Origin: an uncultured virus (IMG/VR IMGVR_UViG_3300036806_000229)
Taxonomy: Duplodnaviria; Heunggongvirae; Uroviricota; Caudoviricetes
Virus record (IMG/VR): IMGVR_UViG_3300036806_000229
Strand: one strand, 5' to 3'
DNA: 64,000 nucleotides
Shown here: positions 4,232 through 61,184 of the stretch, piece by piece
How positions within the stretch are numbered: position 1 is the first letter of the stretch
How the letters are laid out: each line of letters starts with the position of its first letter
Translations under genes and position numbers: made by a program
The notes under the pieces: generated by a model
Databases searched by the model: none
What the model saw: the letters and a program-made list of their open reading frames with translations, nothing else
Told to the model about the DNA's origin: nothing

Positions 4232-4897
4232 ATGGAAATGTTGAACAAGAAGATTCTACTGGCCGCCGCCACAGCCCTTGGACTTAGTCTTTCAGCCTGC
4301 GGTGTTCATGCCCAAACTACGGGCGGAAACACTGGTGCATTGATCGGCGGTGATGGGGTTTATATCTTCAAAACCCTGCCAATGGCCTCGGGCGGCATTG
4401 TTATTGGTCAAGGCGCCGCATCTGACCCGGTCATTGCTAATATGTCCGGGGACTGTACCATGAACGCTAGTGCCGTGGTGACGTGCACCAAAACCAACGG
4501 CGCGAATCTGGGCACTGCGGCGGCAGTAAACACCGGAACCAGCGGCAACACACTCGGAACCTTGTCCTCGGCCAAGACCGATTCCGGGGCTCTGAACACC
4601 TATCTTGGTCATGTAGCGGCTGGGACATCTGCTCCAACCTTGTCTTCATGTGGTGGGGGTAGCCCAGCAGTTCTGGGTGACGACAAGGATGGGGAAATCA
4701 CCCTTGGCACATCAACGGCAGGTTGCACACTCACCTTTGCTACGGCATACACATCCAAGCCCCTTTGCACCGTAACGTGGCAAGCCAACCTAGCCGCGAT
4801 GGGTTACACCCCTGCTAGTGGAACGTTGACACTAACTCAGACCTCTGCCTCATCTAATAAGGTAAACTATCACTGCACCGCCCAAAACGGCGGCTGA
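4232..4897 (+). CDS. Exported fibre/spike-like protein
   Basis: Signal peptide (VHA-Q; alternative lipobox LSAC); Gly/Thr-rich; C-terminal CTLTFATAYTSKPLC like fibre tip domains. Confidence 0.55.
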   Translation: MEMLNKKILLAAATALGLSLSACGVHAQTTGGNTGALIGGDGVYIFKTLPMASGGIVIGQGAASDPVIANMSGDCTMNASAVVTCTKTNGANLGTAAAVNTGTSGNTLGTLSSAKTDSGALNTYLGHVAAGTSAPTLSSCGGGSPAVLGDDKDGEITLGTSTAGCTLTFATAYTSKPLCTVTWQANLAAMGYTPASGTLTLTQTSASSNKVNYHCTAQNGG

Positions 4898-4898
4898 G

Positions 4899-5201
4899 GT
4901 GAAGGGGCAGAGAGGAGAATTTCCTGGTACATATCGCTGCGGCTCAAGATGGGGAGCAAAAGTCTGGATAGACGGCGAACTTCACTACATTGGTTGTTTC
5001 AAAGATCGTAAGGTTGGAGCGGATTATGTACGGCTTGTTGAGAGTCGCTATCCTCAAAGGCTGAGGCGTCCTCGCGGTACGATCCGACGACAAAGAGGAA
5101 GGTGGCGCTGTCAAGCGCCACGGCCTAATCGTGATAGCCTAGGCTATTTCACAACAAAATGGGCCGCTGAGCGGTTTATGAAAAGGCTGGGCTACAGATG
5201 A
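4899..5201 (+). CDS. AP2-like DNA-binding protein (two AP2-like repeats, no nuclease domain)
   Basis: RWGAKVWIDGELHYIGCF and RWRCQA...SLGYF repeats. Confidence 0.55.
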   Translation: MKGQRGEFPGTYRCGSRWGAKVWIDGELHYIGCFKDRKVGADYVRLVESRYPQRLRRPRGTIRRQRGRWRCQAPRPNRDSLGYFTTKWAAERFMKRLGYR

Positions 5202-5560
5202 GAAAGGTACTAGCCTTCGCGATCGCGCTGGGACTATCGCACGGCGCATTGGCTGCAGGCATTTCGACATCCAGCAATCTCACAATTACGGTTACAGGTG
5301 TACCAATCATCGGATTTTCGCCGAACAACCCAATGATATCATGCACACTGGCCGCGGGCACTGTGGTTTCAGCGGTAAGCATAACCGGAGGGGATGGTCA
5401 GCCTATAACGCTTGCGCTGAGCAGTGATACGACAGACTTTGCCTTAAGCGGGACTGCTCCCCCGGCCAACGTCATCGTCGGACCGAACGGCATCACATGT
5501 CCCGTGGCGCCAGCAACGAGCACCACCGATATCGTCACCGTCACGGCGACACAGCCGTAA
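5198..5560 (+). CDS. Exported Ig/cadherin-like small protein
   Basis: Signal peptide ALA-A; beta-strand pattern AGTVVSAVSI...DFAL...VTVTATQ. Confidence 0.6.
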   Translation: MRKVLAFAIALGLSHGALAAGISTSSNLTITVTGVPIIGFSPNNPMISCTLAAGTVVSAVSITGGDGQPITLALSSDTTDFALSGTAPPANVIVGPNGITCPVAPATSTTDIVTVTATQP

Positions 5561-5564
5561 ATAT

Positions 5565-10361: not shown

Positions 10362-10794
10362 TCCGTATCCGCTGGTTAAGATGCAGACTTTTAACCTTGG
10401 CGGGGTGATACAGACGACGATCGGTCCAGTGCCTATCGGCAATGATGGGATATTCTTCGCCCCGGCCAGTGATATCGGCACGCTTCAGGCGATCGGCTGT
10501 ATATTGGTCCAACAACCAGCCGGCGGCAATGGAACAACCCATTACGTTGATCTCGACACCAGCCTCGCGTCACAAACCTATATCCTCCCTTCAGATCCCA
10601 TTGACAACGACGTGTATGTGTTAAAGGATGCGAAGGGTATGATTCAAACAAACCCGGTAACAGTGATCCCGGGCACTGGTGGCGTGTTGATTGACAATGC
10701 CAGTCAGTTCCCAAACCCGCCTAGTGTCTGGATCAATTGGTCCGCGTTCAGTTTCCGTTGGAGCCAGGGTCAAGGTAAATGGTTAGTGCAGTAA
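10348..10794 (+). CDS. Putative virion adaptor or decoration protein (no signal peptide)
   Basis: N-terminal module shared with ORF 15100; C-terminal LP..P..ND....KD module of the T4 gp9/gp10-like type. Confidence 0.5.
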   Translation: MPGPNPYPLVKMQTFNLGGVIQTTIGPVPIGNDGIFFAPASDIGTLQAIGCILVQQPAGGNGTTHYVDLDTSLASQTYILPSDPIDNDVYVLKDAKGMIQTNPVTVIPGTGGVLIDNASQFPNPPSVWINWSAFSFRWSQGQGKWLVQ

Positions 10795-11111
10795 TTTGGT
10801 TCCTGCTTGGCATCACCCCGGCTTTGGCGGGTGAGATGCCATCTGCGTGTTCACCAGATACGCCATACGAAATTTGTATCTTAATCATCCAACGCAACAA
10901 CGCCCTGAATGATGTGGCACACAATGCCGGCCAGCAAGATTTACAAGAAAAGAAATGGAAAGCTGAAGATGAAGCAAAGGCCAAATATTGGAAGAAATAC
11001 ATTGATGGGGAAGAAATCCAACGGCAGGGGTTAGCTCAATACTGGTCCGAATACATCACCGGAATGCAAATCAAAACCGCCCGTGCCGCTGAAGTTGGTA
11101 GGAGACACTAA
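10779..11111 (+). CDS. Exported small coiled-coil protein
   Basis: Signal peptide ALA-G; helical QRNNALND segment; 2 Cys. Confidence 0.55.
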   Translation: MVSAVIWFLLGITPALAGEMPSACSPDTPYEICILIIQRNNALNDVAHNAGQQDLQEKKWKAEDEAKAKYWKKYIDGEEIQRQGLAQYWSEYITGMQIKTARAAEVGRRH

Positions 11112-12059
11112 GTGAAAAGATGGATTGTATTACTTAGTATCTTTGCACTGGTTTGGTCACAAACCGCCAATGCCGCGTATGTACCAACACCAACGTCGGT
11201 AATTGCTGGCGGTACTGGCTTGGCAACTCTTACCGCGCACGGGGTATTGGTAGGAAATGGAACATCAAGTGTGGTATTGGTTGGACCAGGAAGTACTTCC
11301 GGCGTCGCATTGGTTTCCGGTGGTTCTTCAGCCGATCCAAGTTTCACCACCGTCTTGCCAGTAGGCGGTGGTACTGGTTTAGCAACGCTCACTGCCCATA
11401 ATGTAATGTTGGGTGAAGGAACCAGTAACGTTGCCTTCGCCGCGCCAGGTGCAACTACTGGTGTTCCACTCATTTCAAACAACGCCACAACCGACCCGTC
11501 ATTCGGCACCGCGGCGGTGGCCGGTGGTGGTACAGGCGCCACAACCCTTGCCGCAAACGGTGTGCTGGTCGGTGAAGGTACATCTGCCGTTCATGTGGTG
11601 GGAACATCGTCCACAGCCGATTCCGTCGTCGCATGGGCAGCGGCAGGTTCCGATCCTGCGGCCTTGGCCATTGGCTCATGTTCGGCAGCGTCAAACGCCC
11701 TGACATATAGCACTTCATCCCATGTTTTTGGTTGTAACACCATTTCCGCCGGTGCCGCACCGTCTGTTGCCATTGCCGCCACATCTGCGTCAATCACCCT
11801 AGCCTCAACCAATCTTCTAACCACGGTAGTAAACAACACCACCGTTGCTACGGCAACATTGCCCAGCGCCGTGACCGTAGGCACTGGTTTCCGTGGATGC
11901 ATTAAAGATGGAACAGAAGATTTTTCTGCCCATAACGTAACATTGAAGAGTACCGCCGGGACCATTGATGGAATTGCTGCCGCGACAGGAATTGTTATGA
12001 ATATAACCCACCAGGAACTCTGCGCCATATCTGATGGAACTAACTGGTACGTTGAGTGA
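11112..12059 (+). CDS. Exported tail-fibre-like protein
   Basis: Signal peptide ANA-A; three GGTG.ATL.AhgVl.GeGTS fibre-shaft repeats; C-terminal gp10-like module. Confidence 0.7.
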   Translation: MKRWIVLLSIFALVWSQTANAAYVPTPTSVIAGGTGLATLTAHGVLVGNGTSSVVLVGPGSTSGVALVSGGSSADPSFTTVLPVGGGTGLATLTAHNVMLGEGTSNVAFAAPGATTGVPLISNNATTDPSFGTAAVAGGGTGATTLAANGVLVGEGTSAVHVVGTSSTADSVVAWAAAGSDPAALAIGSCSAASNALTYSTSSHVFGCNTISAGAAPSVAIAATSASITLASTNLLTTVVNNTTVATATLPSAVTVGTGFRGCIKDGTEDFSAHNVTLKSTAGTIDGIAAATGIVMNITHQELCAISDGTNWYVE

Positions 12060-12071: not shown

Positions 12072-12932
12072 ATGATGCGCCGATGGATATGGGTTGTAAT
12101 CGGTTTATGGTTTGGGTTGTTCATTTCGTCAGTAGGCCAGACTGCATACCGTGATATATTTCAGTATGGCGGCCAAGGCAACGCGGGAGTTGGGATTGTA
12201 CCGTCGGCACTGACGGATGGAAGTTCAATCGCCGTCAATGCGCATTTATCAAACACATTTACATTAACAATTACCGGTACCAGCCACACAATTTCAAACC
12301 CAACAAACGAGGTCACTGGTCAACCAGTTGACTTTATCATTACACAAAATGCCACTGGCGGTTTCAGTCCACTTTGGGACACGCATTTTACATTTCCCGG
12401 CGGTGGCCCGAGTTTAAACACTGCCGCGAATGCGGTAAGTGTAATTTCATGTAAAGTTGCAACTGCAAATGCAGTTGGTGGGATTATTTGTCTAGCCGGT
12501 CCTCAGGCCCAAGGTACTGGGGCGAGTTTTTCGGGCAACCCAGCTGACCCGACAGGCGCGGGGACATCTGGCACCGCAGCCATGATGGGGATGGGTAGCA
12601 CGTGCAAAGTTACGCCAGCAACAACTGGTCGGATTAACTTTACTTTTGACGGAACAGTTGCATCTGCCACTATCGCCGATGGCGGTACGATCGCGTTACG
12701 GTATGGAACGGGAACTGCACCGGCAAATGCAGCCGCAGCTACCGGAACAGTATTGGGTAATAGTCCTCAATACCTGGTTTCGACCACTGCGGCTCGCTAC
12801 CCTTATGCACTTAACCGAGTAGTGACAGGATTAACAGTAGGAACTGCATATTGGTTCGATGTGAGCTTAACACCTAACGCATCGGTTGTGGTAACTATAC
12901 GGGGTAATACATGCACTGCAATGGAGTATTAA
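12072..12932 (+). CDS. Exported fibre/spike-like protein
   Basis: RR + hydrophobic leader; LTDGSSIAV..NPTN..G..FIITQ fibre domain shared with ORF 16141. Confidence 0.6.
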   Translation: MMRRWIWVVIGLWFGLFISSVGQTAYRDIFQYGGQGNAGVGIVPSALTDGSSIAVNAHLSNTFTLTITGTSHTISNPTNEVTGQPVDFIITQNATGGFSPLWDTHFTFPGGGPSLNTAANAVSVISCKVATANAVGGIICLAGPQAQGTGASFSGNPADPTGAGTSGTAAMMGMGSTCKVTPATTGRINFTFDGTVASATIADGGTIALRYGTGTAPANAAAATGTVLGNSPQYLVSTTAARYPYALNRVVTGLTVGTAYWFDVSLTPNASVVVTIRGNTCTAMEY

Positions 12933-12934: not shown

Positions 12935-13195
12935 ATGAAGTGGACCTGGGGTTTAATTTTCCTGGCCATGATTAGTACGGTCCATGTGGTTCATGCCCGA
13001 GATATGAAAGCTAAAAATCCGGCCCCAGTCTCCTGTCCCTCAACCCAATCAATGGTTTCCTTTTCCTCCACCCATAAAGGCTGTGTGTTGTACTGGTTAA
13101 GTATAAATGGGGCAACCATAGCCGGGGTCAGGGATCTGAAAACTAACACCATTGTCGAACAGCCGGCGTTGAACCTGCATTATGAAGGTAAGTAA
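12935..13195 (+). CDS. Exported small protein
   Basis: Signal peptide VHA-R; 2 Cys. Confidence 0.55.
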   Translation: MKWTWGLIFLAMISTVHVVHARDMKAKNPAPVSCPSTQSMVSFSSTHKGCVLYWLSINGATIAGVRDLKTNTIVEQPALNLHYEGK

Positions 13196-13196: not shown

Positions 13197-13652
13197 ATGC
13201 GGAAATGGATCTTAGTCCTCGCGTTAGCTTTGGCATTTCCATTTACATCTCAGGCCGCACCTCCGGCTGCCTGTGGTACAGGTGTTACCAACTGTACGAA
13301 TGACACATCTGCAGATGAACTTTTACGCGCCGCGAGTCTTGATCCTAATTCACAAGCCCGAATTTATGGTCTGTGGGTCGGAGAATGTTTAAGTGTGTTC
13401 AATGAAGATCCAGGAACTGCAAACCATACCTCTCGTGTTCAATACTGCGGCGCGGTAGTTGGGCAAAAAGTTCCTCTAAACATGCTGGTTTGGATTGTAT
13501 TTGCAAGTTCGAATATAAGAAACCAGGTACTAGTTAATTACCCTAACCCATCATCGCCGTTGTTGGGTAATATGGTCGATGTGGACGCGAAAACTGCAAT
13601 TGATTCATCGATTACTGGTTACGGTCTCGCGGGAACATGGCCGGCTCCGTGA
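13197..13652 (+). CDS. Exported protein
   Basis: Signal peptide MRKWILVLALALAFPFTSQA-A; 4 Cys. Confidence 0.65.
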   Translation: MRKWILVLALALAFPFTSQAAPPAACGTGVTNCTNDTSADELLRAASLDPNSQARIYGLWVGECLSVFNEDPGTANHTSRVQYCGAVVGQKVPLNMLVWIVFASSNIRNQVLVNYPNPSSPLLGNMVDVDAKTAIDSSITGYGLAGTWPAP

Positions 13653-14200
13653 GAAAGTTTACTGCATATTTAATTGGATTGTTGCTACTATCCCGGCCAG
13701 TTTATGCAGATTGTTTATACGACCCAACATATCCATTAGTTTCTACTACCAGCCTTTTTGCTGCTGCAGATTTATCCAGTCTCGGTGCAAACGCGTGTAA
13801 ATTATCCACCGGCGGAACAAGTGGTGTATTTACAGTCAGTACCGTTACTGGTTACGCACTTTTCGGCCGAATTGCATTTAAAGTCATCACGACAGGATTT
13901 ACCCCATCTGCAGGGCAGAATTTATCTATCTGGCTCCTTCGTTCATTCGACGGGTCGACTTATGAACAAAACTACGTATCATCATGCGGATCTACTCAGG
14001 GTCCAGTTCAACGTGCCCCGGATTTTGTTATCCCACTACCGCCGGTTGCTTTGGCTGCTAACGACCTTCTCTGGTCTTATCCAGGTTTAGTCCCTGAAGG
14101 GCAGACATTTAAAGTCGTGCTTTGGAATAATGGAACTACGGCATTGACCGCGGCCAATCACACCGTGACTTTGGGCGTTTCGGCAGTGAAATGTCAATAA
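13637..14200 (+). CDS. Exported jelly-roll-like virion protein
   Basis: Signal peptide VYA-D; WLLRSFDGSTYE and FKVVLWNNG beta pattern seen in phage spike-base-like proteins. Confidence 0.55.
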   Translation: MAGSVRKFTAYLIGLLLLSRPVYADCLYDPTYPLVSTTSLFAAADLSSLGANACKLSTGGTSGVFTVSTVTGYALFGRIAFKVITTGFTPSAGQNLSIWLLRSFDGSTYEQNYVSSCGSTQGPVQRAPDFVIPLPPVALAANDLLWSYPGLVPEGQTFKVVLWNNGTTALTAANHTVTLGVSAVKCQ

Positions 14201-15084
14201 GGGCGCTATTTGGGGCTGTAATTTGGCTTCTGTATAGCGGTTCTGGCTATGCACAGCAAATTCCCACAAATCAACCCAACTGGGCTTTTACAGGCTGTTC
14301 ACCCCGGGTTAATTACTCAAATCCATTAACTCAAGGATTAAGCGCTTTATGGGTTACGATTGGTGGTTTACAGTATGAACTGATAAGCAATACATACGGA
14401 ATATATACTTCACAGGGACCGATAACTGGACCTTATGGTCAAACTACCCCATTTGGATCATCGAATATACTTTTTACCCATGCTTCTGTACCGCAAATTA
14501 ATAATTCCAATGGGTTAAGTGTTTTTTTCTTAGGCAATCCCGCGTCAAGCGCCTCTAATATTAGTTTCGCGGTTGTGGTTGGATTTGGTACTGGAGCAGA
14601 CCCAAATATGGGTTTGGTAATGAATGCGGATGAAACCTTTAGTGCTTCAGCCCACTCGTTTCTAATTTATAACGTAGATTCGTTGTCTAATATTTTTACT
14701 GCAGCCACAGACGGAAATGGTGGGGTAGATGGTGAATGGCATGTATTTATAGCCACGATACAAGGGTCCAATACCACTGGTTATCAAATATATGTAGATA
14801 ACAAAAATCTAGGCATAACCGTAGGATCTACAACTGGCCCGTGGACCAGTTATTCTGGAAACACTCTAAGCATTGGCGCAAATATAGACGGGACTAATAG
14901 TCTTACAGGTGGATCTATAGCAATGGTCGGAGCGTATAATCGAATACTTTCTCCAAATGATCGGGCAAGTTTGACTGTAAATCCCTATCAATTGATCAGC
15001 TGTCCAGTTCCAGATCAATTGTTAACTATGATGGGGAACTGGTTTCTAACCCAAGGCGGTTCATTCATCTTCAAACCGTTCTAA
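14191..15084 (+). CDS. Exported concanavalin A / LamG-like lectin domain protein
   Basis: Signal peptide GYA-Q; GEWHVFIATI..YQIYVD..LSIGA..GSIAMVGAYNRILS LamG-like motifs. Confidence 0.75.
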   Translation: MSIRALFGAVIWLLYSGSGYAQQIPTNQPNWAFTGCSPRVNYSNPLTQGLSALWVTIGGLQYELISNTYGIYTSQGPITGPYGQTTPFGSSNILFTHASVPQINNSNGLSVFFLGNPASSASNISFAVVVGFGTGADPNMGLVMNADETFSASAHSFLIYNVDSLSNIFTAATDGNGGVDGEWHVFIATIQGSNTTGYQIYVDNKNLGITVGSTTGPWTSYSGNTLSIGANIDGTNSLTGGSIAMVGAYNRILSPNDRASLTVNPYQLISCPVPDQLLTMMGNWFLTQGGSFIFKPF

Positions 15085-15099: not shown

Positions 15100-15795
15100 A
15101 TGGCACAACCAGTACAGACCGTTCAACTTGCAACCAACGGGTTGAGCGGAGTGATTCAAGGACTGTTTGGAACCTACGTTCCACTAGCCGATGGGACGAT
15201 TCAAGCCGATTCCAGAGATGTAATTGACTTGATCCGGGCGGGAATGACATATGTGAACAAAGTCACCCGAACGATGTCATTTTCCATTGCTCCAGCTACA
15301 GCCTCGGCCACAGTTTACGTCGCCAACGTCGCGGCGACAAACGTAGCACTGACCATCGCCGCGCAACCGGATGTGGTCCGGCCGTTTCAGGCAGTCTTTG
15401 CCCCTGGTGCAGCAGCAGTCACCGCTGGCACACTTACGGTGGTGTATACCGGAAACGACGGTATTACCCACACGGATGTGTTCTCGCTCGTTACCGGCTC
15501 CGGCGTCAGTCTTACCCCTAACTCGTCCAAAGCCTGCGCCCATATTACCTCTGCCACCATCGCCGGAATCGCAGGCGGCTCGTCGCCAACGATTCAGATC
15601 GGCTCAACTGCTGCCTTGGGTCTGGTTTGCGATCCTGGGTTCCAGGGCTTCGCAGTCCAGAAAGAAAATGATGGAAGCGGCAATGCGACAGTTGGAACCG
15701 TTAACGCGGGACAAGGCGCTATTGCCCCGACTGCGGCTCCTAACGCGACGCGGACATATGAGTTTACTTACAGTTATATCGCGCCGGGTGTGTAA
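15100..15795 (+). CDS. Putative head decoration or adaptor protein (no signal peptide)
   Basis: Strong RBS; Ala/Thr-rich beta protein; N-terminal module shared with ORF 10348. Confidence 0.55.
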   Translation: MAQPVQTVQLATNGLSGVIQGLFGTYVPLADGTIQADSRDVIDLIRAGMTYVNKVTRTMSFSIAPATASATVYVANVAATNVALTIAAQPDVVRPFQAVFAPGAAAVTAGTLTVVYTGNDGITHTDVFSLVTGSGVSLTPNSSKACAHITSATIAGIAGGSSPTIQIGSTAALGLVCDPGFQGFAVQKENDGSGNATVGTVNAGQGAIAPTAAPNATRTYEFTYSYIAPGV

Positions 15796-15796: not shown

Positions 15797-16144
15797 ATGA
15801 ACTGGGTTATAAGCGCCCTAGGGGCGCTTATGATTTGTCTGGGGTTTAATGCCCAGGCTCAAATTTCTATTTCCCGCCCATTGATCGTGGTTCCATCCAC
15901 TATTGGCGCGTCTCCCGTCACAGTTGACCAGGCTCGTCAGCGTGTGTATTTGGCAATGTTGAATCTTGATGGGGCCAATACAGTCGGTTGTACGTTTGAT
16001 GGCTCGACGCCAGTAGTAGGCGCCGCTGGGACGATGACATTCTTACCACATCAGGGTTATGTCTGGGACTCTGGCGTAATTCCGTCTAATATTCTCATCT
16101 GCATCGCCTCTGGCTCCAACACTGCATTTACGGTTCTTGAATGA
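15797..16144 (+). CDS. Exported small beta protein (paralog of 35190..35699)
   Basis: Signal peptide AQA-Q; R....LN.....V..TF pattern. Confidence 0.6.
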   Translation: MNWVISALGALMICLGFNAQAQISISRPLIVVPSTIGASPVTVDQARQRVYLAMLNLDGANTVGCTFDGSTPVVGAAGTMTFLPHQGYVWDSGVIPSNILICIASGSNTAFTVLE

Positions 16145-18600
16145 AAAAGATTTATGCGGTCCTCGGGCTTTTCCTTGGGCTGTGTATTAGTCATGTGGCG
16201 TGGGCAGGTGGGCCAGTAAACCCGCCGCCATGCTTTGTTGGCTCGATTCCGACCGGGAATTATCTTAAATACGCCGGTGGTGGTTGTGCCCAGGATGGCG
16301 GCACGGGAACCGGAGCAGCCACTCCAGGTGGTACAACTGGCCAAATACAACAAAACCGGCCACTTGGAACCTTTGCCCCGACAGCCTTAACTGACACCGG
16401 TACGACGATTACGTCATCTGAGCCATTGGCCGGGACTTGGAATTTTACTGGTACATTTCAGATTGGCGGCGTGACGATTACGTATCCAGCAAGTGGTGTA
16501 TTACTTGGGTCAACTGATACCCAGACCGTATCGGGTAAGAGCTTTAGCTGTTCAGCTAACACCTGCACCAATATTCCAAACTCGGCCCTTGTTAACCAGG
16601 GCTTAACTCTTGGTTCAACAAGCGGGATCAATCTCGGCTCAACAACTTCTTCCATTGCTGGGTTAACCCTTACCGCATCGCCCATCCTTGCATTGCGTGA
16701 CGCTAGTGCTGCATTTGACGTCAGCTTAGTTGCTACGTCCTCTGCAACACTTACAGGAGGCAGAGTAGTCACATTTGACGTGGTGAATGGAAGCCGGACA
16801 TTTAAACTTGGATCGAACCTTACCGTTGCAACAGACCCAGGTGCTGTAACTGGGGCTCTTAAGGCAAACGGCACGGGAACATTTACCCAAGCCGCCTGTG
16901 GCGATTTATCTAATTCTGGAAGTGGATGTGCAGGAACGCTGCCAACTGGCGCAAATCCATCCGCGACTATTGGAGCGGCAGCAACTAACGGCTCGGCCAC
17001 TACGTTCTTACGCTCGGACTCTGCGCCGGCCATCGGTTCCAATGCCGTTACAAACGCCCTTCTAGCTCAAGCAGCATCGAAAACCCTGAAGGGCAATTTA
17101 TCCGGTGTCACTGCCAATGTAAGCGACATATCCGCGCCAGATTGTCCTGACACTGGAGGGCAGCATTGGAACTCGTCCGGTGGTGTAATTATCTGTGGAA
17201 CTAGTGGCGGCGGCTCTGGTACGCCGATTATATTTGAAGGCGCAGCGACTGGTACGAATACTTATACCGTTTCATCGTTAACGCCAGGAAGTGGTTTTGC
17301 GTATACAGATGGTTATATTCTCCGTTTACGGTTTGCGAATGGAAATACATCTGGAGCTACAATCAATGCGCTGACCCTGGGCGCGATACCGATTAATAAA
17401 CAAACACTTAGTGGGCTGGCAGCACTAACCGGCAGTGAGATTCAAGCGGCGAATACGCAATATGATTTGGTGTATAATGCTGCTGCCGGTGTGTTTGTTA
17501 TGACTACGATAATCCCTGGCACTGCCGCGTTCCAAAACATCAGCACCAGTGGTGCGAATGTAGGTTTGTTAAGCACAGTAAATACATTTAGTAAGAAACA
17601 GTTTATTACCCCAGTAACATTAACCGATTCCTCGTCGATTGCAGTTGACCCTACATTATCAAATCAGTACTATTGGACCATTGGAACCAGTGGCAACTGC
17701 CTTGCCAATCCATCTCCCACACTTACGGGTAACGATACTACAGTTTTTTACATAATCCAAGGCGGCAGTGGAAATAACATCCCTTGTGCATCTGGTTGGC
17801 CGACGGCATACCACTGGGCAGATGGGTCGGTATGTACGCCAGGAGTTACATATCCGTGTTGGTCAACGGCAGTAGGCGCCGAAGACCGGATTGTATGTAA
17901 TGTTCCACTAGGGCAGACGTACTGGGATTGTAGCCATCCACAAATTTCCTTTGCCTTGCCAGCATGGTCGTTGTATGCAAATCATGCGATTAGCACGGTG
18001 GCCGGAAGTGGCGGCTCGACTACTGTAACCGTGGCAATAGCCAATACGGTTGCTGGTGCATTCCGTACAGTTGAGTTTGGGTTCTGTGGCAATTCAGGAT
18101 GTACTGGAGCAACGGCGTCTCCGACATCTGTAACAGATGGTACGACAGCGTGTACACATGAATCCGGTACATTGGTAAGTGTTGCTGCATATGCAACGGA
18201 TATTTGGAAATGTTCAAATGTGCAGAACGCCGGAACCATTACTGGCACATGGGCATCACCCGTATTTTACGGTGTCGCAGCAGCTCAGGAATGGAAAAAT
18301 GCCGCGGCGACAGTTTCAGCTGGCCTTGGAAATATAAACAGTGGAAATCCCGTAACTTCACTATCCGTATCGTCTAGTGGATCAGTATCCCAGATCGGCG
18401 CATTGGTTTTATCGGCTATACTTAATTCCGGTACGGCGGGGCAAACAAGTGGTCAAACATCTATTGACCAATCAGCTGGCAACGGGATTGAATTAGGCAT
18501 TGCATACCAGCTTCCATCTTCTACGGGAACCAAAACCAACAGCGCGACGTTTGGGAGTAGCTATGGCGTCGGTTCAATTGCGGTGTTTAATCATCAATGA
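16141..18600 (+). CDS. Large exported tail-fibre-like protein (819 aa)
   Basis: Signal peptide AWA-G; Gly/Ser/Thr-rich fibre segments (NGSATTFLRSD, AVTNALLAQ); 18 Cys in the mature chain. Confidence 0.75.
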   Translation: MKKIYAVLGLFLGLCISHVAWAGGPVNPPPCFVGSIPTGNYLKYAGGGCAQDGGTGTGAATPGGTTGQIQQNRPLGTFAPTALTDTGTTITSSEPLAGTWNFTGTFQIGGVTITYPASGVLLGSTDTQTVSGKSFSCSANTCTNIPNSALVNQGLTLGSTSGINLGSTTSSIAGLTLTASPILALRDASAAFDVSLVATSSATLTGGRVVTFDVVNGSRTFKLGSNLTVATDPGAVTGALKANGTGTFTQAACGDLSNSGSGCAGTLPTGANPSATIGAAATNGSATTFLRSDSAPAIGSNAVTNALLAQAASKTLKGNLSGVTANVSDISAPDCPDTGGQHWNSSGGVIICGTSGGGSGTPIIFEGAATGTNTYTVSSLTPGSGFAYTDGYILRLRFANGNTSGATINALTLGAIPINKQTLSGLAALTGSEIQAANTQYDLVYNAAAGVFVMTTIIPGTAAFQNISTSGANVGLLSTVNTFSKKQFITPVTLTDSSSIAVDPTLSNQYYWTIGTSGNCLANPSPTLTGNDTTVFYIIQGGSGNNIPCASGWPTAYHWADGSVCTPGVTYPCWSTAVGAEDRIVCNVPLGQTYWDCSHPQISFALPAWSLYANHAISTVAGSGGSTTVTVAIANTVAGAFRTVEFGFCGNSGCTGATASPTSVTDGTTACTHESGTLVSVAAYATDIWKCSNVQNAGTITGTWASPVFYGVAAAQEWKNAAATVSAGLGNINSGNPVTSLSVSSSGSVSQIGALVLSAILNSGTAGQTSGQTSIDQSAGNGIELGIAYQLPSSTGTKTNSATFGSSYGVGSIAVFNHQ

Positions 18601-19664
18601 TCCGGGTCATTCTACTTTCCCTGTTCACATGGTTAAGTCTAACTACCCACGCGTCAGCTCAATTCTCTGACCTTCTAATCGGCGAGCAAAGCCGGAAAGT
18701 TGTTGTTGCAACACCACCACCGCCGCCAGGCGGCATATGTTCAACAACTCCTACGACTGCAGTTGCTCTAGGCATGACGCAGCAGATCTACTGCGCCGAC
18801 TTTTCTTTAAGTTCATACAGTACCCAAGCGTCCCCAGGTTATTTTAATCTAACAAACGGCTGGTTTGGATGCAACGGCGATACCAATCAACATGAATGGT
18901 ATCAGACCTATATTTACGTTCACTCTGGTGGGCCGTTCCCACCATGCTCCAATTTCTCCCCCGGAACCGCTGATCCATCTACCGGAACAACGACACTCAA
19001 GATTCACTGGAATGCGGCGGACTGCCCAAGCAGTTGCAACAGTCAAGCAAACGCCAATACCAATGCGATGCAAAATGGTTTGTGGGGCGGCAATGACGGC
19101 GGTTCTGGCTTTTGGTCCATGCCGACCAATTACTACTACAGCATTAAGTGGCGCGTATCAAGCGCTGTGTCTGGTTCGTACAACGCCGCAGATACCGTGG
19201 GGCTTGCGACATATTTGTTTGATGTTAACAGCCTACACTCAGGGAGCTTTACCTCCAACGAGTTAGACCCGGCGAATTGGCAGGCGGACAACAACCCATG
19301 CTGCAATCAGTATGGATTTGTGAACAATTGGGGAAACGGCAGCGATCCGGACCAGACAATTTACGCCTCGGGGAGCCCTGACATGGTGGCGGCACCGCAT
19401 ACGTTCGCCATCACGATCCGCAATAATGGGTCTTCGGGAGGAAGCAACGGGACGGCTTGCGAGTTTATCGACGATTCTCAGGTAGGGTCATGCATTGGGA
19501 TCAAGCCGACGACTGATCAGGGAAACAACTATCGCGGTATTGCCATTCATTCGATGGGGAACCTTCCGAGATCGTGGGATATGTATATCTACAGTATCCA
19601 AGTGTTCACTCGAGCTGGGTGTGCGTGGCAGAGCAATCCATGTTTAGGTTCAGCATCTCCGTAA
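18597..19664 (+). CDS. Exported ConA/GH16-like carbohydrate-binding protein
   Basis: Signal peptide ASA-Q; poly-Pro linker; NELD and HTFAI..FID..G GH16-like pattern; 12 Cys. Confidence 0.55.
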   Translation: MIRVILLSLFTWLSLTTHASAQFSDLLIGEQSRKVVVATPPPPPGGICSTTPTTAVALGMTQQIYCADFSLSSYSTQASPGYFNLTNGWFGCNGDTNQHEWYQTYIYVHSGGPFPPCSNFSPGTADPSTGTTTLKIHWNAADCPSSCNSQANANTNAMQNGLWGGNDGGSGFWSMPTNYYYSIKWRVSSAVSGSYNAADTVGLATYLFDVNSLHSGSFTSNELDPANWQADNNPCCNQYGFVNNWGNGSDPDQTIYASGSPDMVAAPHTFAITIRNNGSSGGSNGTACEFIDDSQVGSCIGIKPTTDQGNNYRGIAIHSMGNLPRSWDMYIYSIQVFTRAGCAWQSNPCLGSASP

Positions 19665-19673: not shown

Positions 19674-20156
19674 ATGACAGTATTAACTCGATTTAAAGAC
19701 CTCTGGTCTCATGTGAAAGCATTTATTGATCGGCCAAGAGGCGGCCTGGAAGTTGAGATGGTTTACGCTGGAATTGAACTGTGTGTAGCAGTGTTGATAT
19801 TAATCAATGGACAGGAAATATTGGACACACCTTCGTTCCAGATATTTTATTGGAAATTGAGTTATGTCTATGTTGGAATTGCATGGTTAGTGTCTGCTGT
19901 ATTAACATATTTTGGTTTAATTCTTTTCTGGACACGGCATAAACTCTGTGCAGTTTTCCGTTTTCTTGGGGCTCTTTTTTCGGCCACGGTTTGGTTTTGG
20001 GTTTTATGGAACGTAACTACGACTTACGACCGGATGACTACAGCAATTATAACTGGTGTATCGGTTTTTGGGATCATATGGCAATATCGAATCATGATTT
20101 CAGCCTTGAGCCGCCAGCGACGGTATTGGATAGAATGGCATGTCAGTACCGATTGA
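19674..20156 (+). CDS. Membrane protein, about 4 TM
   Basis: Four hydrophobic segments. Confidence 0.7.
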   Translation: MTVLTRFKDLWSHVKAFIDRPRGGLEVEMVYAGIELCVAVLILINGQEILDTPSFQIFYWKLSYVYVGIAWLVSAVLTYFGLILFWTRHKLCAVFRFLGALFSATVWFWVLWNVTTTYDRMTTAIITGVSVFGIIWQYRIMISALSRQRRYWIEWHVSTD

Positions 20157-20571
20157 GGGTGCAGGTTCGGCACCTTGGTGGTTTTCGTTTATTGTATCTG
20201 CCGTAGTATCAGCAGTGTTGGGGTTATTAAGTGCCTTGTATGTTAAGAAATCTGATTGGCGGCGGGAAGACCATAAAACAGTTTCGGCAGCAGAGCTGGC
20301 ATTACCTAGTCAGATGAGTGAAGCATATAAAGGGCTGGTTGAGGATTTAAGTAAACAGTTAGCTGATCAAATAGAAAGCGGTAACAAACTGTGGATTGAG
20401 TTTCGTAAAATGCAGCAGGCATTGGTTGATGCCGAAAACAAACATCGAGAGTGTGAAACACGGGTGTTGAGACTTGAGTCGGAAAATAAGACACAAAGCC
20501 GTAGAATATCCGCCTTAGAAACTCGACAGCAAATTATTCGCCCGGATACTGATTATATAAAAGGAGGCTGA
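20140..20571 (+). CDS. TM-anchored coiled-coil protein (lysis-associated?)
   Basis: N-terminal TM then a long heptad coiled coil; between two membrane genes. Confidence 0.6.
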   Translation: MSVPIEGAGSAPWWFSFIVSAVVSAVLGLLSALYVKKSDWRREDHKTVSAAELALPSQMSEAYKGLVEDLSKQLADQIESGNKLWIEFRKMQQALVDAENKHRECETRVLRLESENKTQSRRISALETRQQIIRPDTDYIKGG

Positions 20572-20573
20572 AT

Positions 20574-20840
20574 TTGAATTCAGATACAGTAAGAACATGG
20601 GGGCAGTTGAGTTTATGTGTCTTGACCGGGATTATTTTCTGTGTAGGATTTACTGCCGCGTGGTTATCTAAAGACCAATCAAATCTTGGATTGTTCTACG
20701 GTGCAATAATCGCGTTGTTTACTCAGGTTGTTAATTACTTCATCGGCTCGTCAGCAAGTTCACAAAAAAAGGATGATATTATTGCGAATAGAGAAGTTCC
20801 AAACCCAACCCCAACCCCGCCTTCAACCCCAAATCCTTAG
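20574..20840 (+). CDS. Holin-like protein
   Basis: Two TM helices followed by YFIGSSASSQKKD, a C-terminal motif common in phage holins. Confidence 0.6.
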   Translation: MNSDTVRTWGQLSLCVLTGIIFCVGFTAAWLSKDQSNLGLFYGAIIALFTQVVNYFIGSSASSQKKDDIIANREVPNPTPTPPSTPNP

Positions 20841-34538: not shown

Positions 34539-34778
34539 ATGAGAAAGATTAGTCTTGGTTTTGTGCTTGGATTAGTGCCAGGAATTGCAATGGCAGCAGA
34601 GAACGCGGTTCAACCGTTGCCTACCTGGCAGGATGTGGCGATACAATCAAGTGTTAATTCCGCATCGGATCATGCGTTGGATCTGACAATTATTCGGTCC
34701 TTGCAAAATGAAATTGTGGAATTAAAAGCAAAACTTAATCCCCCTAAAACGCCGCCAACTAATTCCCCGTCGCCTTGA
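34539..34778 (+). CDS. Exported small coiled-coil protein
   Basis: AGGAG RBS; signal peptide AMA-A. Confidence 0.6.
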   Translation: MRKISLGFVLGLVPGIAMAAENAVQPLPTWQDVAIQSSVNSASDHALDLTIIRSLQNEIVELKAKLNPPKTPPTNSPSP

Positions 34779-35203
34779 TGTCCGGGGATTCACAAGCCGC
34801 CTTAGCTCGGGCCGCGGCAGAGATTGCGGATTTAAAAACAAAGTTAAACCAAGCCAATATCCAGGTCGCCGAGGCGAAGCAAAATACTTCTGCGGCGCAT
34901 ACGGCGGCGACCAAAGCTCAGACTGAAACCACTGCCGCGATTCATGCCCGTGATGAATGGAAAGATAAATATAATGACGTAGCCAGGCAGTTGGCAGATA
35001 TAAATTCTTCTATCGAGCCAGGAATAACAAAACAAACTATGTTTGTAACGGCGGGCGATGGAACAGTACACAGATCTATGAACCAAGCCCGGCGGCATTT
35101 GGTTCGTAGCATGTTAGGGATAACTGAAAGCCAAATGGACAGTGTTCTTGTCCACGGTGAAACGGTAATGGGGATTTTACAAAGGATAAATGCCAGTGGA
35201 TAA
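34775..35203 (+). CDS. Coiled-coil hypothetical protein
   Basis: Coupled ORF; heptad-rich N-terminal half. Confidence 0.6.
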   Translation: MMSGDSQAALARAAAEIADLKTKLNQANIQVAEAKQNTSAAHTAATKAQTETTAAIHARDEWKDKYNDVARQLADINSSIEPGITKQTMFVTAGDGTVHRSMNQARRHLVRSMLGITESQMDSVLVHGETVMGILQRINASG

Positions 35204-35699
35204 AAGTGTATTTATATTCCTAACTTGGGTATTGTTGCCTATCTCAGCCTTTGCCCAGGCAACTGGAAATGTGTTTCCAACGCCTAATGGTCAGGTTGCG
35301 CCGGGGTATATGACCCTGGTTCCAGCAGGACCTATTGTTAATGGTCAACCTGTCGCCGCGCCACCTAGTTTAGTCAATGGAATGCCGGTTGTGTGTACGA
35401 ATTGCAGTCCAAGTGCTCCGACAGGCGCGAGCTCAAACCCAATCAACGGGACTATTGCAGTTACTAACACGTTTCAGACTCTAACCGCCTTAAATACGGC
35501 GCGTAAGAGTTGTACGTTTCAAAACCAAGGCACACACACGATGTATTTTAGTATCGCACCGAGTCCGACATTAACCAATTCACTTCAAGTACCACCGGGC
35601 GGCTTGTACGAATGTGCTAGTTCGTCTAATGTTGTAATTACGGATCTGATTTATATCACTGGAACCGCCGGCGATGCCTTTGCGGGGGAATGGCAGTGA
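35190..35699 (+). CDS. Exported small beta protein (paralog of 15797..16144)
   Basis: Signal peptide AFA-Q; RKSCTFQNQGTHTMYFS..QVPPGG. Confidence 0.65.
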   Translation: MPVDKSVFIFLTWVLLPISAFAQATGNVFPTPNGQVAPGYMTLVPAGPIVNGQPVAAPPSLVNGMPVVCTNCSPSAPTGASSNPINGTIAVTNTFQTLTALNTARKSCTFQNQGTHTMYFSIAPSPTLTNSLQVPPGGLYECASSSNVVITDLIYITGTAGDAFAGEWQ

Positions 35700-57767: not shown

Positions 57768-58073
57768 CTAAGGCGCGCAGGTGAACGGGCAACCTCCCCA
57801 GCTGTAGGGTGGTAGCGCTGCCGATGCGGCCTTCGCGGCCTCATCGCATAGCGCGGGTGTGGCGAAGCACTCCCGAATTTGCCGCAGGCCGACGGTGCCA
57901 TCGCCGACCGGCGAGCAGCCATTGACGATCATTTTCTTGGTGCCGTAGGTCACATATATCGGCGTGCAAACTTCGGTGCCGATAAAGGAATTGCCGCCGG
58001 CTTTCGCTGTGGTGGGTATGCTGCCGGCAAGACAACAGGATGCGACGGCCGCGAGTGCGAGTGTTTTAAACAT
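57768..58073 (-). CDS. Exported small Cys-rich protein
   Basis: Signal peptide AKA-G; 6 Cys in the mature part. Confidence 0.6.
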   Translation of the reverse strand: MFKTLALAAVASCCLAGSIPTTAKAGGNSFIGTEVCTPIYVTYGTKKMIVNGCSPVGDGTVGLRQIRECFATPALCDEAAKAASAALPPYSWGGCPFTCAP

Positions 58074-58126: not shown

Positions 58127-58492
58127 TTAGAATACCTGATCCACATCCGTAATACGGAGGATCATGCCGTTGTTGCCAAAGTCCAGCTTGCATTGCATGT
58201 AGTCGCCTGGGACTAAAAAACTGACCCGTTGCTTGTTATTCGCCGCCTGAATAAGCCCATCAGCCTGCTCCCCGAGAGCAACTTTCACTGCCTCGAATGT
58301 GCTTTCCCGCCCGGGCCACGCCGCAGCTGTTAGGCCAATGCCATACCACACGTCAACGTCGTCAAACTGCCACCCATCGCATTGCGTGCCGAGATGTTGA
58401 TTGGTGATGCGGTGCGTCGAATCATCCGCGAACGCCGTGCCAGCAAGCGCTGTCAACGCAGTGGCGACAAAAGCAAGTGATTTGAGCTTCAT
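58127..58492 (-). CDS. Exported protein
   Basis: Signal peptide MKLKSLAFVATALTALAGTAFA-D; GGAG RBS; 2 Cys. Confidence 0.7.
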   Translation of the reverse strand: MKLKSLAFVATALTALAGTAFADDSTHRITNQHLGTQCDGWQFDDVDVWYGIGLTAAAWPGRESTFEAVKVALGEQADGLIQAANNKQRVSFLVPGDYMQCKLDFGNNGMILRITDVDQVF

Positions 58493-59161: not shown

Positions 59162-59592
59162 AAAGGTTTCCACAAAATCGGGCGCGACGGACCCATGTCG
59201 GCTTCCTCTTCGATCCACCACGTGCCTTTTATCCATTCGCCGTTGTAGTGGGCGCGATGAAAGCCGGTTGATCCGGGCTCGATGACCTGGAACAACGAGC
59301 CGTCCTTCGGACAATAGATCGCGTCTTGCCAGCCCAAATCTTTCAGGCGCTCCGTTGCCTCGAACAGCATTTTCACGGCCGCGCCCTCGTCAGGCATCAG
59401 CTCGGCGCGCCGCTCCTCAGCCTTCTTCGCCGCTGCCAACAACGAATTTGCACGCTCCCTGTCCAGCTGCCGAAGCAACGCAGCTATCTCATATGGGCCT
59501 AGGACTCGTAATTTAGTCGGATGGATATCGGCCATTTCGGCACGAGTCCGAGTTTCAATCTCGACATCGGTCGGCTCCAATACCACATTCAT
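59158..59592 (-). CDS. Hypothetical phage protein
   Basis: LGW.DAIYCPKDGS.F.VIEPGSTG motif typical of small phage proteins. Confidence 0.65.
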   Translation of the reverse strand: MNVVLEPTDVEIETRTRAEMADIHPTKLRVLGPYEIAALLRQLDRERANSLLAAAKKAEERRAELMPDEGAAVKMLFEATERLKDLGWQDAIYCPKDGSLFQVIEPGSTGFHRAHYNGEWIKGTWWIEEEADMGPSRPILWKPL

Positions 59593-60248
59593 GACGCGGC
59601 CTCTAATTCTTCGATCGTCACACCGAAAAGCGGCAAGAAAAACAAAGGCTTCCCTTGCTTTCGCAATACATCGATTCCCTGGATCTCGTTGGTGGCCCAG
59701 GCTGCTTCCCTGGCTCCGGTCCTGGCTCCTATGGCTCTGACCCTGGGTGCGACCCAGGCTATTTTCCTGACTACGGCATTGGTCGCTTCTATAGCTGCGG
59801 CACTAGCTGTGGCACTGGCCGCGACCCAGTTTGCGCCCCAGGTTACTTCCCATTGCGTCGATGTAAATCTGAAAGGTTTTGGCGCCATCCTATCCAATAA
59901 ACGCCAGAAGCGCAGAACTAGCGGCGCCTTGTCCCCCAGGACTCGCTCGGGACGGTCCAGCACGTCTTGCGGGCACCCTGTAGCATGGTCGTTGACTATT
60001 CGCAGCAAACAAGCGTGAGCTACTGATATCCCAAGCAGTTTAGCGACCTCACGATCAGCGATATATTGCTCAGCGTCGCGCAACTGACCGTCGGACCATC
60101 CTGCGAGCCGCAAGATGTCGCCTTGGGCGCAACAACAGCCGTCATCGTCGATTAACCTGCCTTTGAACAGAGGCCGACTATTCGGATCTTCCCATCGCTT
60201 AATGATTTTCTCGATGGTGATCTGTTCAGGTGGCTTTCCGTCTCGCAT
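59589..60248 (-). CDS. Hypothetical protein with Ala/Trp-rich repeat region
   Basis: GAGG RBS; CCCAQG motif. Confidence 0.6.
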   Translation of the reverse strand: MRDGKPPEQITIEKIIKRWEDPNSRPLFKGRLIDDDGCCCAQGDILRLAGWSDGQLRDAEQYIADREVAKLLGISVAHACLLRIVNDHATGCPQDVLDRPERVLGDKAPLVLRFWRLLDRMAPKPFRFTSTQWEVTWGANWVAASATASAAAIEATNAVVRKIAWVAPRVRAIGARTGAREAAWATNEIQGIDVLRKQGKPLFFLPLFGVTIEELEAAS

Positions 60249-60402
60249 CGTTGACCTCAGGGGTTCATTAGTTGATATGAGATAGGTGCCTTGGAAGGGT
60301 GGGTACAATAGCACAATATGGATGGATGGTCATGCAAAATTGGTGCGGCGGAGTGTCGCATGACCACCCAAATCATCCCAGTGAACCCACCCTCCGTTGT
60401 CC

Positions 60403-60705
60403 TTAGTTCATTGTTGTATTCGGCGGTGGTACAGTCGCAGTCATCATGATTGTGATTTCGGACTTTAACATGTCTGTGATTAAGCGGTACAGAGATACAA
60501 GCTTGACCTGTAACCGTTGTGGCTCGGCTTGGACTTCTGGATCGCATACCGCCGTTGCCATCATCATACTAGCGGTAATCTTGACTAGCATTTCCACAGC
60601 ATCGCTGCATTGGGCTTTGTTGGCTTGGAATAGTGCTATAACCTGTTGGCTTAGTTCGGTTTTGGCTTCTTCAGAAAGATATTCACGTTCTGGATTCATG
60701 TTCAT
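60403..60705 (-). CDS. Hypothetical protein
   Basis: AGGAG RBS; coupled ORF. Confidence 0.55.
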   Translation of the reverse strand: MNMNPEREYLSEEAKTELSQQVIALFQANKAQCSDAVEMLVKITASMMMATAVCDPEVQAEPQRLQVKLVSLYRLITDMLKSEITIMMTATVPPPNTTMN

Positions 60706-61184
60706 GGCTCCTGGTTGTAGATTTGTTTGTACAGTTTTCGCCAATCGGTTCTGAAACCTTCTTGCCACCATACAACACTGCCGTGGTAATAGCAGATATC
60801 GGCGTGGGCATAGTTTTCTAAAGCATCTTTTTCCCTTGCCTCGGGCCAGGGTTGTGGCCAGTAGTTTGGCATGGAATCCTTGCCGCCGATTTCGATCGGG
60901 ACTAGATGATCGCCTTCGTATTGATTCTCGGTTCGAACATCCAGTCCATATTGCAACATGGACATGATTTTGAATTTCTTATCCTGATTTTTATCCCGGT
61001 GTGCGGTGCTGTAGTTCCAGGCACATATTACCTTTGGATCGGTTGTATCTATGTCACCGGGGGTAAGCAATTCGTCTGGTAAACTTACCAGTCCAGCATG
61101 GACTGGAAGTGAATCTGTGCTCGCTGCGAGGAATATACCCATACAGAGGGCGGGGATTTGAATCCCGAGGCGGGAAGTGGTCAT
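60702..61184 (-). CDS. Exported HNH-like (His-Me finger) nuclease
   Basis: Signal peptide VHA-G; LTPG, YEGDHLVPIEIGG..N.WPQP..KD.LEN. Confidence 0.65.
   Translation of the reverse strand: MTTSRLGIQIPALCMGIFLAASTDSLPVHAGLVSLPDELLTPGDIDTTDPKVICAWNYSTAHRDKNQDKKFKIMSMLQYGLDVRTENQYEGDHLVPIEIGGKDSMPNYWPQPWPEAREKDALENYAHADICYYHGSVVWWQEGFRTDWRKLYKQIYNQEP

Follow-up and report, generated by a model that had tools for sequence, protein, structure and literature searches.

What would a tailed phage gain from sending a large set of its own proteins through the secretion machinery of its host, and does any phage do so? The question is raised by a 64,000-nucleotide stretch of DNA from an uncultured virus of the Caudoviricetes (IMG/VR record IMGVR_UViG_3300036806_000229), here called the window, which represents nearly the whole of a tailed-phage genome of approximately 67 kb (67,040 bases); the phage is a siphophage with an RcGTA-like tail tip. 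In this window an initial annotation had picked out 20 open reading frames (ORFs) that start with a signal peptide-like leader and that all have an even number of cysteines in the predicted mature chain. Given the evidence set out below, we consider it highly probable that export and disulfide formation are real, and only a little less so that all 20 ORFs of this tailed phage truly encode Sec substrates. Individual ORFs are named by their lower coordinate, and their coordinates are collected in the table.

Our gene set consisted of 91 ORFs, hand-picked from a mechanical ORF list by strand consistency and minimal overlap. Leaders were sought with a rule of our own that combines a hydrophobic core with the -3/-1 rule, the cleavage sites being predicted. 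The scan flagged 23 of the 91 ORFs: the 20 of the initial annotation, with identical cysteine counts, plus 3340-3708, 20574-20840 and 28187-28945. The last is the tail tube gene, flagged at a low score (3.6) and a false positive, and 20574-20840 encodes a membrane protein with no Cys past the predicted site. In the lipoprotein 3340, one Cys lies in the hydrophobic core and another is the lipobox Cys, leaving no free Cys in the mature chain.

A scripted recount at the cleavage sites used for the earlier hand counts returned the same 20 values (the mature counts in the table), such that all 20 leader proteins, and all 19 with any Cys, are even. Among the other 71 ORFs there are 39 with even counts, or 25 of the 57 with any Cys. 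The comparison with leaderless ORFs that had been proposed as a check gave a one-sided Fisher p of 4.3e-5 for all ORFs and 3.7e-6 for those with non-zero counts only, and the binomial probability of 19 even counts out of 19 at 0.5 is 1.9e-6. It had also been pointed out that leaderless structural proteins are often odd, and this holds for 10348, the 25826 adaptor, the 28187 tube and the 37058 Dit protein (1, 3, 1 and 1 Cys). The 20 leader proteins are not paralogous, apart from a single weak pair (12072 and 16141, 34% identity over 100 amino acids), and can therefore be treated as near-independent observations. Cysteine makes up 2.04% of the residues of mature leader proteins (98 of 4807) and 1.19% of those elsewhere (180 of 15099).

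The parity depends on taking the leader away. Before cleavage only 15 of the 20 leader ORFs have an even total, whereas after it all 20 do; six leaders contain Cys, and their removal turns the five odd totals 7, 3, 19, 7 and 3 into 6, 2, 18, 6 and 2. That parity becomes perfect only once the leader is removed supports cleavage, and at least 10 homologues likewise go from odd to even. In only 6 of the 20 leader ORFs is there any Cys near the cleavage site.

The spacing of the cysteines is also ordered. The impression that many of them occur in close pairs was borne out when residues were paired in order (1-2, 3-4 and so on): the median gap is 17 residues within pairs (n=49) and 53.5 between them (n=30; Mann-Whitney p = 2e-6). 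When Cys were placed at random 5000 times, the result was never as extreme. No such effect was present in the 18 leaderless ORFs with at least 4 Cys. The last Cys lies no more than 15 residues from the C-terminus in 9 of 19 leader ORFs versus 11 of 57 others (p = 0.02), a placement that looks like a disulfide staple as far as the sequences go. In 13637, 32690, 56176, 57768, 12072, 4232, 18597, 11112 and 15797 that distance is 1-13 residues, and three of the proteins end in Cys-Pro or Cys-Ala-Pro.

Homologues behave in the same way. Three metagenomic homologue families carry leaders, mostly with Ala/Gln sites (the slash marks the cleavage site), and have even counts. In the 16141 family all nine non-self homologues (P0002-P0010) have leaders; the script found 8 of 9 even, which became 9 of 9 after the site of P0004 was moved by eye to AWA/Q, and Gln is at +1 in 9 of 9 by eye. 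32690 has 25 non-self homologues. The script predicted a leader in 19 of them and scored 18 of these as even, and a by-eye check of truncated or mis-cut N-termini gave 23 of 23 leader members even, 21 of the 23 with Gln at +1; two members have no visible leader. In the 56176 family 3 of the 4 full-length members are even. Aligned cysteines are also kept or lost together as the order of pairing predicts. When 56176 was aligned with 5 homologues, sequential pairs gave 25 concordant to 3 discordant cells and pairs shifted by one gave 15 to 9; for 18597 and 6 homologues the ratios were 29:2 and 14:12. For the 219-277 pair of 56176, P0014 and P0015 lose the Cys aligned with C219 and have a new one a few residues ahead of its partner.

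The pattern extends to phages other than that of the window. In all other fetched phage loci (plus strand, ORFs of at least 100 amino acids, de-duplicated), an even count is found in 31 of the 39 predicted leader ORFs that have any Cys and in 216 of 494 such leaderless ones (p = 1.2e-5), and the 8 odd leader ORFs include obvious false positives. A more pointed comparison comes from the fibre repeat of 16141 (alignment A1), which is shared with fibres of other phages. Eight distinct leaderless carriers of 507-3577 amino acids have 9, 1, 3, 9, 2, 1, 1 and 2 Cys (2 of 8 even), whereas the leader-bearing carriers, namely the window protein, those of four loci and nine database proteins, have 6-22 Cys and are even in 14 of 14 cases; two carriers at contig ends were excluded. 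A tblastn search with 16141 gave no match in cultured phages. Consecutive leader ORFs also occur in other uncultured phages of 63% G+C content (GC): six at 6704-13345 of locus L093, with 6, 8, 4, 2, 12 and 8 Cys, and four at 7703-13989 of L099, with 16, 2, 4 and 18 Cys, all even.

An even-Cys bias is an established indicator of the oxidative folding of exported proteins (Daniels et al. 2010, PMC2823432, crediting Dutton et al. 2008 and Mallick et al. 2002). In the bacterial exported proteomes covered by the part of PMC2823432 cited here, as in the window, a leader together with paired Cys marks extracytoplasmic substrates of the disulfide pathway; the bias there is a statistical one (aerobic Actinobacteria, for instance, are about 60% even), whereas in the window it is 20 of 20, and in a phage. 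The initial annotation took the bias as support for real export, and this argument is now backed by the parity switch, the sequential pairs, the covariation and the even homologues.

A further regularity lies at the predicted mature N-terminus. Gln at +1 had been reported for 8 of the 20 proteins, which we confirmed at the same sites; the number is 9 if 12072 is cut at VG/Q. With Gln making up 3.7% of mature chains, the excess at +1 has a binomial p of 3e-7, and in other loci 13 of 41 predicted leader ORFs have Gln at this position. In Bacteroidetes, signal peptidase I sites expose Gln, which stabilises extracytoplasmic proteins (the Q-rule; PMC5837995, in the part cited here). The share of 40-45% in the window compares with at least 48% reported there for 332 of 334 Bacteroidetes species. 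The Q-rule has already been reported in phage genes, in the P. gingivalis phages of PMC10367356, where, in the portion cited, the leader genes are of unknown function; the homologue families of the window are near 100% Gln over loci of 59-68% GC. A Bacteroidota host was considered from the Gln rule and set aside, since capsid relatives lie in genomes labelled as Proteobacteria and the homologue families extend across 59-68% GC. Capsid relatives at 61-75% identity were found in genomes of Acetobacteraceae, a "proteobacterium" and Paraburkholderia (62-69% GC), and a homologue 71% identical to 32690 is labelled Verrucomicrobiae. Capsid-region DNA had no match among cultured phages, the nearest of which by protein search are Brevundimonas phages, at 36% identity. 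Gln at +1 thus looks, from the distribution of these sequences, like a property of the protein class rather than of one host phylum.

Our working model is as follows. To judge from its sequence, the leader would carry each chain across the host inner membrane, and signal peptidase I would then cut it off, a step supported by the appearance of parity only after removal. The mature chain would fold in an oxidising compartment with its Cys joined mostly as sequential pairs, 1-2 and 3-4, which the spacing and the pair covariation support. The new N-terminal Gln of 8-9 of the 20 proteins could cyclise to pyroglutamate, and terminal Gln together with C-terminal Cys would protect both chain ends, as suits long-lived extracellular proteins. 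No thioredoxin-fold protein was detected by Pfam among the phage proteins of the window.

What kinds of protein are these? Judged by domain content, at least five leader proteins are of a glycan-recognising or glycan-cutting kind: a fibre-repeat protein (16141), a fibre with S74 (35690), a beta-helix protein (56176), a lectin-like protein (14191) and one with a tailspike-type docking domain (32690). For 32690, an AlphaFold2 (AF2) model places two beta-sandwich domains from Q22 onward, with an overall confidence score (pLDDT) of only 43 and residues 25-250 usable. Residues 25-130 superpose (Z 10.4-11.6) on the N-terminal domains of CBA120 tailspike 4, a Pseudomonas phage capsid spike and a Klebsiella phage baseplate protein; for the branched tailspike adaptor CBA120 TSP4 (7rej, 7rfv) and the Pa223 capsid spike (9ny6) the values are Z 10.6-11.5 and a root-mean-square deviation (rmsd) of 2.3-2.5 A over 93-97 residues (7rej, Z 10.8, rmsd 2.3 A, 93 residues; 9ny6, Z 11.5). 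The A21/Q22 site is invariant in 9 of 9 aligned family members, so that the docking-type domain would start exactly at the predicted mature N-terminus; for the same reason, we rejected the ILSC of 32690 as a lipobox. To our knowledge, CBA120 TSP4-type adaptors and the Pa223 capsid spike are leaderless and assembled in the cytoplasm, unlike 32690.

Fibre or spike architecture is present in 35690 (S74), 56176 (beta-helix), 16141 (a repeat in common with giant leaderless fibres) and 32690 (the tailspike-like N-domain). In 35690 the last Cys, C362, sits 3 residues before the S74 domain starts at residue 365, and the protein matches the chaperone part of PDB 6f45, a long tail fibre distal subunit (E 4.6e-4). 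For 56176 the Pfam Beta_helix match (E 4e-5) is below the curated cut-off; the AF2 model has a pLDDT of 69.6, and its top Foldseek matches are the AlgE4 and AlgE6 epimerases, an alginate lyase/epimerase, AlgG and phage tailspikes. Two results from the protein atlas serve as leads only: the structure search describes 18597 as a jelly roll resembling GH16 or polysaccharide lyases, and the clusters nearest to 11112 are viral. There is a weak Ig_3 match in 4232 (E 0.083). Pfam at relaxed thresholds added nothing for the leader ORFs and the 32690 family, and a PDB sequence search with 32690 and 16141 gave no match.

The late operon and the early arm both contain accessory blocks, and it is there that the leader genes are found. 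In the late operon two lie before the terminase gene, about 10-11 between portal and protease, and about 4-5 between tape measure and Dit; 10779 opens a run of seven consecutive leader genes after the portal gene and ORF 10348. Where the capsid protein of a relative is 60-80% identical, a homologue of the leaderless gene 15100 comes directly after the portal gene, and the leader genes are absent; in L002, for example, portal occupies 2659-5232 and the 15100 homologue follows at once at 5248-5931. On this comparison of gene orders, we read the leader genes as accessory insertions. They share variable presence among relatives with phage morons (78 loci, one 13197 homologue). In other phages, fibres of the 32690 type with leaders follow the tail-tip gene (L109, L117, L119) or lie between terminase and portal (L110, L112, L113, L115, L116), and one of the 16141 type follows the baseplate genes of a myovirus (L094). 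The leader genes overlap or abut their neighbours within a densely packed late operon, and promoter- and terminator-like consensus sites around the leader blocks are no commoner than in shuffled sequence, a weak test. Translational coupling is suggested by the many leader genes whose start adjoins or overlaps the stop codon before it. A clear Shine-Dalgarno core is rare (GGAG or AGGAG within 2-7 nucleotides in 6 of 21 leader-gene starts).

There is precedent for leader-bearing proteins in the particle of a tailed phage. The record of Cellulophaga phage phi10:1 (NC_021802), a cultured siphovirus of a Bacteroidota host, annotates gp091-094 as virion structural proteins from tandem mass spectrometry (MS/MS), and when translated these four have Sec-type leaders, Gln at +1 and 2, 0, 2 and 0 Cys. 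As in the window, the leader proteins are consecutive and even in Cys; they are encoded behind the tail genes, and a "pectate lyase" and a "tail fiber protein" are among them. The differences are that phi10:1 has 4-5 leader genes rather than 20 and very few Cys, and that virion MS/MS is available there, as opposed to genes alone in the window. BLAST found no sequence similarity between phi10:1 and the window leader ORFs. Cases that were annotated in a cultured phage, though passed over without comment, foreshadow this class, of which the window is an extreme example, with 20 leader ORFs and perfect parity. Within the library and terms searched, we found no literature on Sec-exported tail fibres or appendages of tailed phages.

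Two further systems offer partial likenesses. The MAT fibres of Bdellovibrio bacteriovorus are described, in the part of PMC10769870 cited here, as phage-fibre-like trimers with variable tips and disulphides, made with a signal peptide and a conserved beta-rich domain directly behind it, some of them also with S74. The 32690 family and 35690 show an analogous arrangement, the comparison being one of layout only. MAT genes are chromosomal genes of a predatory bacterium that serve the cell (PMC10769870), whereas those of the window lie inside phage structural and early modules. Filamentous phages are instructive in another way, and the window differs from them in belonging to a tailed phage with terminase, portal and prohead protease. 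Their pIII and pVIII are virion proteins with Sec leaders, pIII being disulfide-bonded in the periplasm, and their particles are assembled at the envelope and extruded through it.

Several observations weigh against export of the entire set. Leaders were called by a rule-based heuristic and by eye, and are in that sense predicted; those of 10779, 15797 and 56176 are without a positive n-region; one member of the 56176 family, P0016, is odd with 3 Cys; other loci contain real exceptions (L029, 809 amino acids and 3 Cys; L096, 132 and 5; L115, 853 and 11); and the window has a GC content of 46-53%, unlike the genomes that hold the capsid relatives. It could be argued from the hand-chosen set and sites, from the omission of 3340 and from the site-dependence of 57768 that parity is a matter of chance or an artefact of ORF and site choice. 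The parity of 57768 does hinge on whether signal peptidase I or II acts (6 Cys if cut at AKA/G, an odd 7 free Cys as a VASCC lipoprotein), although 4232 read as a lipoprotein (LSAC) still leaves 6 free Cys. We nevertheless regard a chance origin as extremely improbable, as the independent rule-based scan recovered the same 20 ORFs and counts, the contrast with the phage's own leaderless ORFs is strong (p = 3.7e-6), few of the proteins have Cys near the site, the set holds one weak paralogous pair, and the pattern is replicated in other phages. It is also very unlikely, in our judgement, that the hydrophobic N-termini are membrane anchors or buried assembly segments that stay uncut, with disulfides produced by oxidation in air once the cell has lysed. 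This scenario gains some credit from Agrobacterium phage Milano, for which the part of PMC10811340 cited here describes how extensive the disulfide networks of leaderless virion proteins can be. What speaks against it is that uncut totals lack the parity of mature chains in the window and in homologues, that the A(-1)/Q(+1) site of the aligned 32690 family is invariant, that leaderless structural proteins of the same phage are mixed in parity, and that leaderless fibres with the 16141 repeat motif are Cys-poor.

As to where the exported proteins end up, our preference is a tentative one. We lean toward the possibility that the larger ones are accessory host-recognition gear that matures in the periplasm and meets the cytoplasm-built particle at the holin breach or at lysis, the remainder being free envelope-active proteins. 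A more explicit version, to which we give somewhat less credence, is a two-compartment assembly in which head and tail would be cytoplasmic, while a variable set of Sec-exported, Gln-ended (pyroglutamate) fibres, spikes and glycan-active proteins, cross-linked by the periplasmic disulfide machinery of the host, would dock via tailspike-type domains only after the holin has opened the membrane. A place in the virion is favored by the fibre, spike and docking architecture, the gene positions and the MS/MS precedent of phi10:1. Since all of these proteins carry leaders, we do not class them as ordinary tail fibres, which are made in the cytoplasm without an export signal. Points that count against a virion fate are that tailed-phage particles are built in the cytoplasm, that 9 of the 20 leader ORFs are shorter than 160 amino acids and without fibre features, that four leader genes lie on the minus strand among early genes, that 19 of the 20 had no BLAST match in 78 capsid-related loci (the match of 13197 in L031 is a leader ORF of 299 amino acids with 6 Cys), and that no conserved leaderless partner was found beside the leader fibres in other phages. 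It is conceivable, and a possibility we take seriously without thinking it probable, that the proteins are exported and disulfide-bonded but never enter the particle and do their work from the periplasm, at the cell surface or once released; they might cut or mask host polysaccharide and receptors (progeny escape, superinfection block) or form cell-surface fibres like the MAT adhesins. The absence of the leader blocks from relatives with similar capsids, the four early genes and the many small proteins of no assigned family all fit with this, as does 56176, whose likeness to tailspikes is no greater than its likeness to alginate epimerases and lyases that are periplasmic or secreted. Chromosomal MAT fibres, moreover, combine leader, fibre, S74 and disulphides without a virion (PMC10769870, in the part cited), and the P. 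gingivalis phage leader genes that obey the Q-rule are read as surface modifiers in the part of PMC10367356 cited here. Proteins that stayed free would, on the other hand, be harder to reconcile with a tailspike-type docking domain directly after the leader of 32690, with homologues holding classical tail-fibre gene positions in other phages, with the leader-bearing proteins found by MS/MS in Cellulophaga phage virions, and with the lack of any sign of separate transcription units (promoter- and terminator-like sites at shuffle level, the weak test mentioned above).

Table. Leader ORFs and other features of the window; leader ORFs are those with a predicted Sec leader, and Cys counts are for the predicted mature chain unless a total is given.
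Feature	Position	Strand	Length (amino acids)	Cys	Remarks
Lipoprotein	3340..3708	+	122		lipobox LSGC; absent from the initial list of 20
SLT lysozyme	3705	+
Leader ORF	4232..4897	+	221	6 (total 7)	cut VHA/Q or lipobox LSAC
Leader ORF	5198..5560	+	120	2
Large terminase	5565	+
Portal fused to InPase domain	7680-10361	+			C-terminal InPase PF18823, E 1.3e-38
ORF 10348	10348	+		1	leaderless; between portal and first leader run
Leader ORF	10779..11111	+	110	2	C24, C33
Leader ORF	11112..12059	+	315	4
Leader ORF	12072..12932	+	286	4	alternative cut VG/Q
Leader ORF	12935..13195	+	86	2	GGAG 5 nucleotides before ATG
Leader ORF	13197..13652	+	151	4
Leader ORF	13637..14200	+	187	4	last Cys 1 residue from C-terminus
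Leader ORF, concanavalin-A-like lectin/glucanase domain	14191..15084	+	297	2	Pfam Laminin_G_3, E 2.1e-7
Leaderless gene splitting leader block	15100..15795	+	231		homologues in 16 loci
Leader ORF	15797..16144	+	115	2 (total 3)	one Cys in leader
Leader ORF, fibre-repeat protein	16141..18600	+	819	18 (total 19)	conserved short Cys loops
Leader ORF	18597..19664	+	355	12
Three small membrane proteins	19674..20840	+	160, 143, 88		no family above threshold; between leader block and prohead protease
Prohead protease	21100	+
Protein at major-capsid position	23227-24900	+	557		no PHROG function; homologues annotated major capsid protein in Arthrobacter phages
Adaptor	25826	+		3	leaderless
Tail tube	28187-28945	+		1	leaderless
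Tape measure	29627-32686	+
Leader ORF	32690..34528	+	612	6 (total 7)	phrog_32740 "tail fiber protein"
Leader ORF	34539..34778	+	79	0
Leaderless protein in post-tape-measure leader block	34775..35203	+	142	0	weak coiled-coil-type Pfam matches only
Leader ORF	35190..35699	+	169	4
Leader ORF, fibre with C-terminal S74 intramolecular chaperone	35690..37057	+	455	4	Pfam Peptidase_S74, E 1.4e-9, residues 365-420
Dit	37058	+		1	leaderless
Leader ORF, right-handed beta-helix	56176..57639	-	487	12	early/replication arm
Leader ORF	57768..58073	-	101	6 (AKA/G) or 8, 7 free (lipobox VASCC)	sole ambiguous case
Leader ORF	58127..58492	-	121	2
Leader ORF	60702..61184	-	160	2 (total 3)	one Cys in leader

As to the layout of the window, the plus strand from about 3340 to 41104 forms a single densely packed late block, and the minus strand from 41117 on carries replication and nucleotide-metabolism genes. 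The strongest terminator-like hairpin of the region (3114-3145, plus strand; a 13-bp stem followed by a T run) lies just before 3340, which is the first gene after it and just upstream of the SLT lysozyme gene; the late transcription unit to which the leader genes belong probably begins at this hairpin. The lipoprotein 3340, the lysozyme 3705 and the three membrane proteins of 19674-20840 may constitute a dispersed lysis set; one of the three, 20140, has a single N-terminal membrane segment followed by a coiled-coil-like stretch. The leaderless 34775 protein also appears from its sequence to be a coiled coil.

Elsewhere in the head and tail modules, the distal tail is of the RcGTA type (DUF2460, BR0599, and Phage-tail_3 with Rcc01698_C), and the InPase domain fused to the portal is otherwise shown by PHROG in very large polyvalent, DarB-like or virion proteins. 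Directly after the gene at the major-capsid position, 24906-25367 (plus strand) encodes a leaderless protein of 153 amino acids with 9 Cys, including an N-terminal C-x2-C-x2-CC cluster. Homologues in 30 related loci make it a conserved part of the head module, and the protein may bind metal.

In the early arm, minus-strand genes within 45629-46728 and 52898-53602 encode a dCMP deaminase, a protein with a MazZ-like dATP/dGTP diphosphohydrolase N-domain (PF18909, E 9.8e-27) and ThyX. Together these suggest that the nucleotide pool is remodelled; a PurZ-like gene was not seen in the window. Two genes, 43765-45276 and 46765-47958 (both minus strand), apparently encode separate parts of a family A DNA polymerase, with three genes between them, and the upstream part carries a UDG-superfamily domain and a zinc ribbon as well. 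Finally, a 127-amino-acid ORF at 63604-63987 (minus strand) matches phrog_249, "porphyrin biosynthesis", of the auxiliary-metabolic-gene category (E 2.6e-20), and a tRNA scan of the window found none.

With regard to the wider use of these findings, the parity test is a cheap, sequence-only means of separating true exported phage proteins from chance hydrophobic N-termini. If the proteins stay free, secreted envelope-active proteins would take up 20 of the 91 ORFs of this phage, or roughly a fifth. If, on the other hand, they join the particle after folding in the periplasm, annotation would go wrong for this class wherever it takes a signal peptide to speak against a place in the virion, and part of the host-recognition gear of a tailed phage would escape the textbook scheme of all-cytoplasm assembly. 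Host Sec, signal peptidase and Dsb functions would then become host factors for phage infectivity, and the outermost gear of the virion would be hardened like a secreted protein, with disulfides, pyroglutamate and C-terminal Cys staples that would explain the stability of soil phage appendages.

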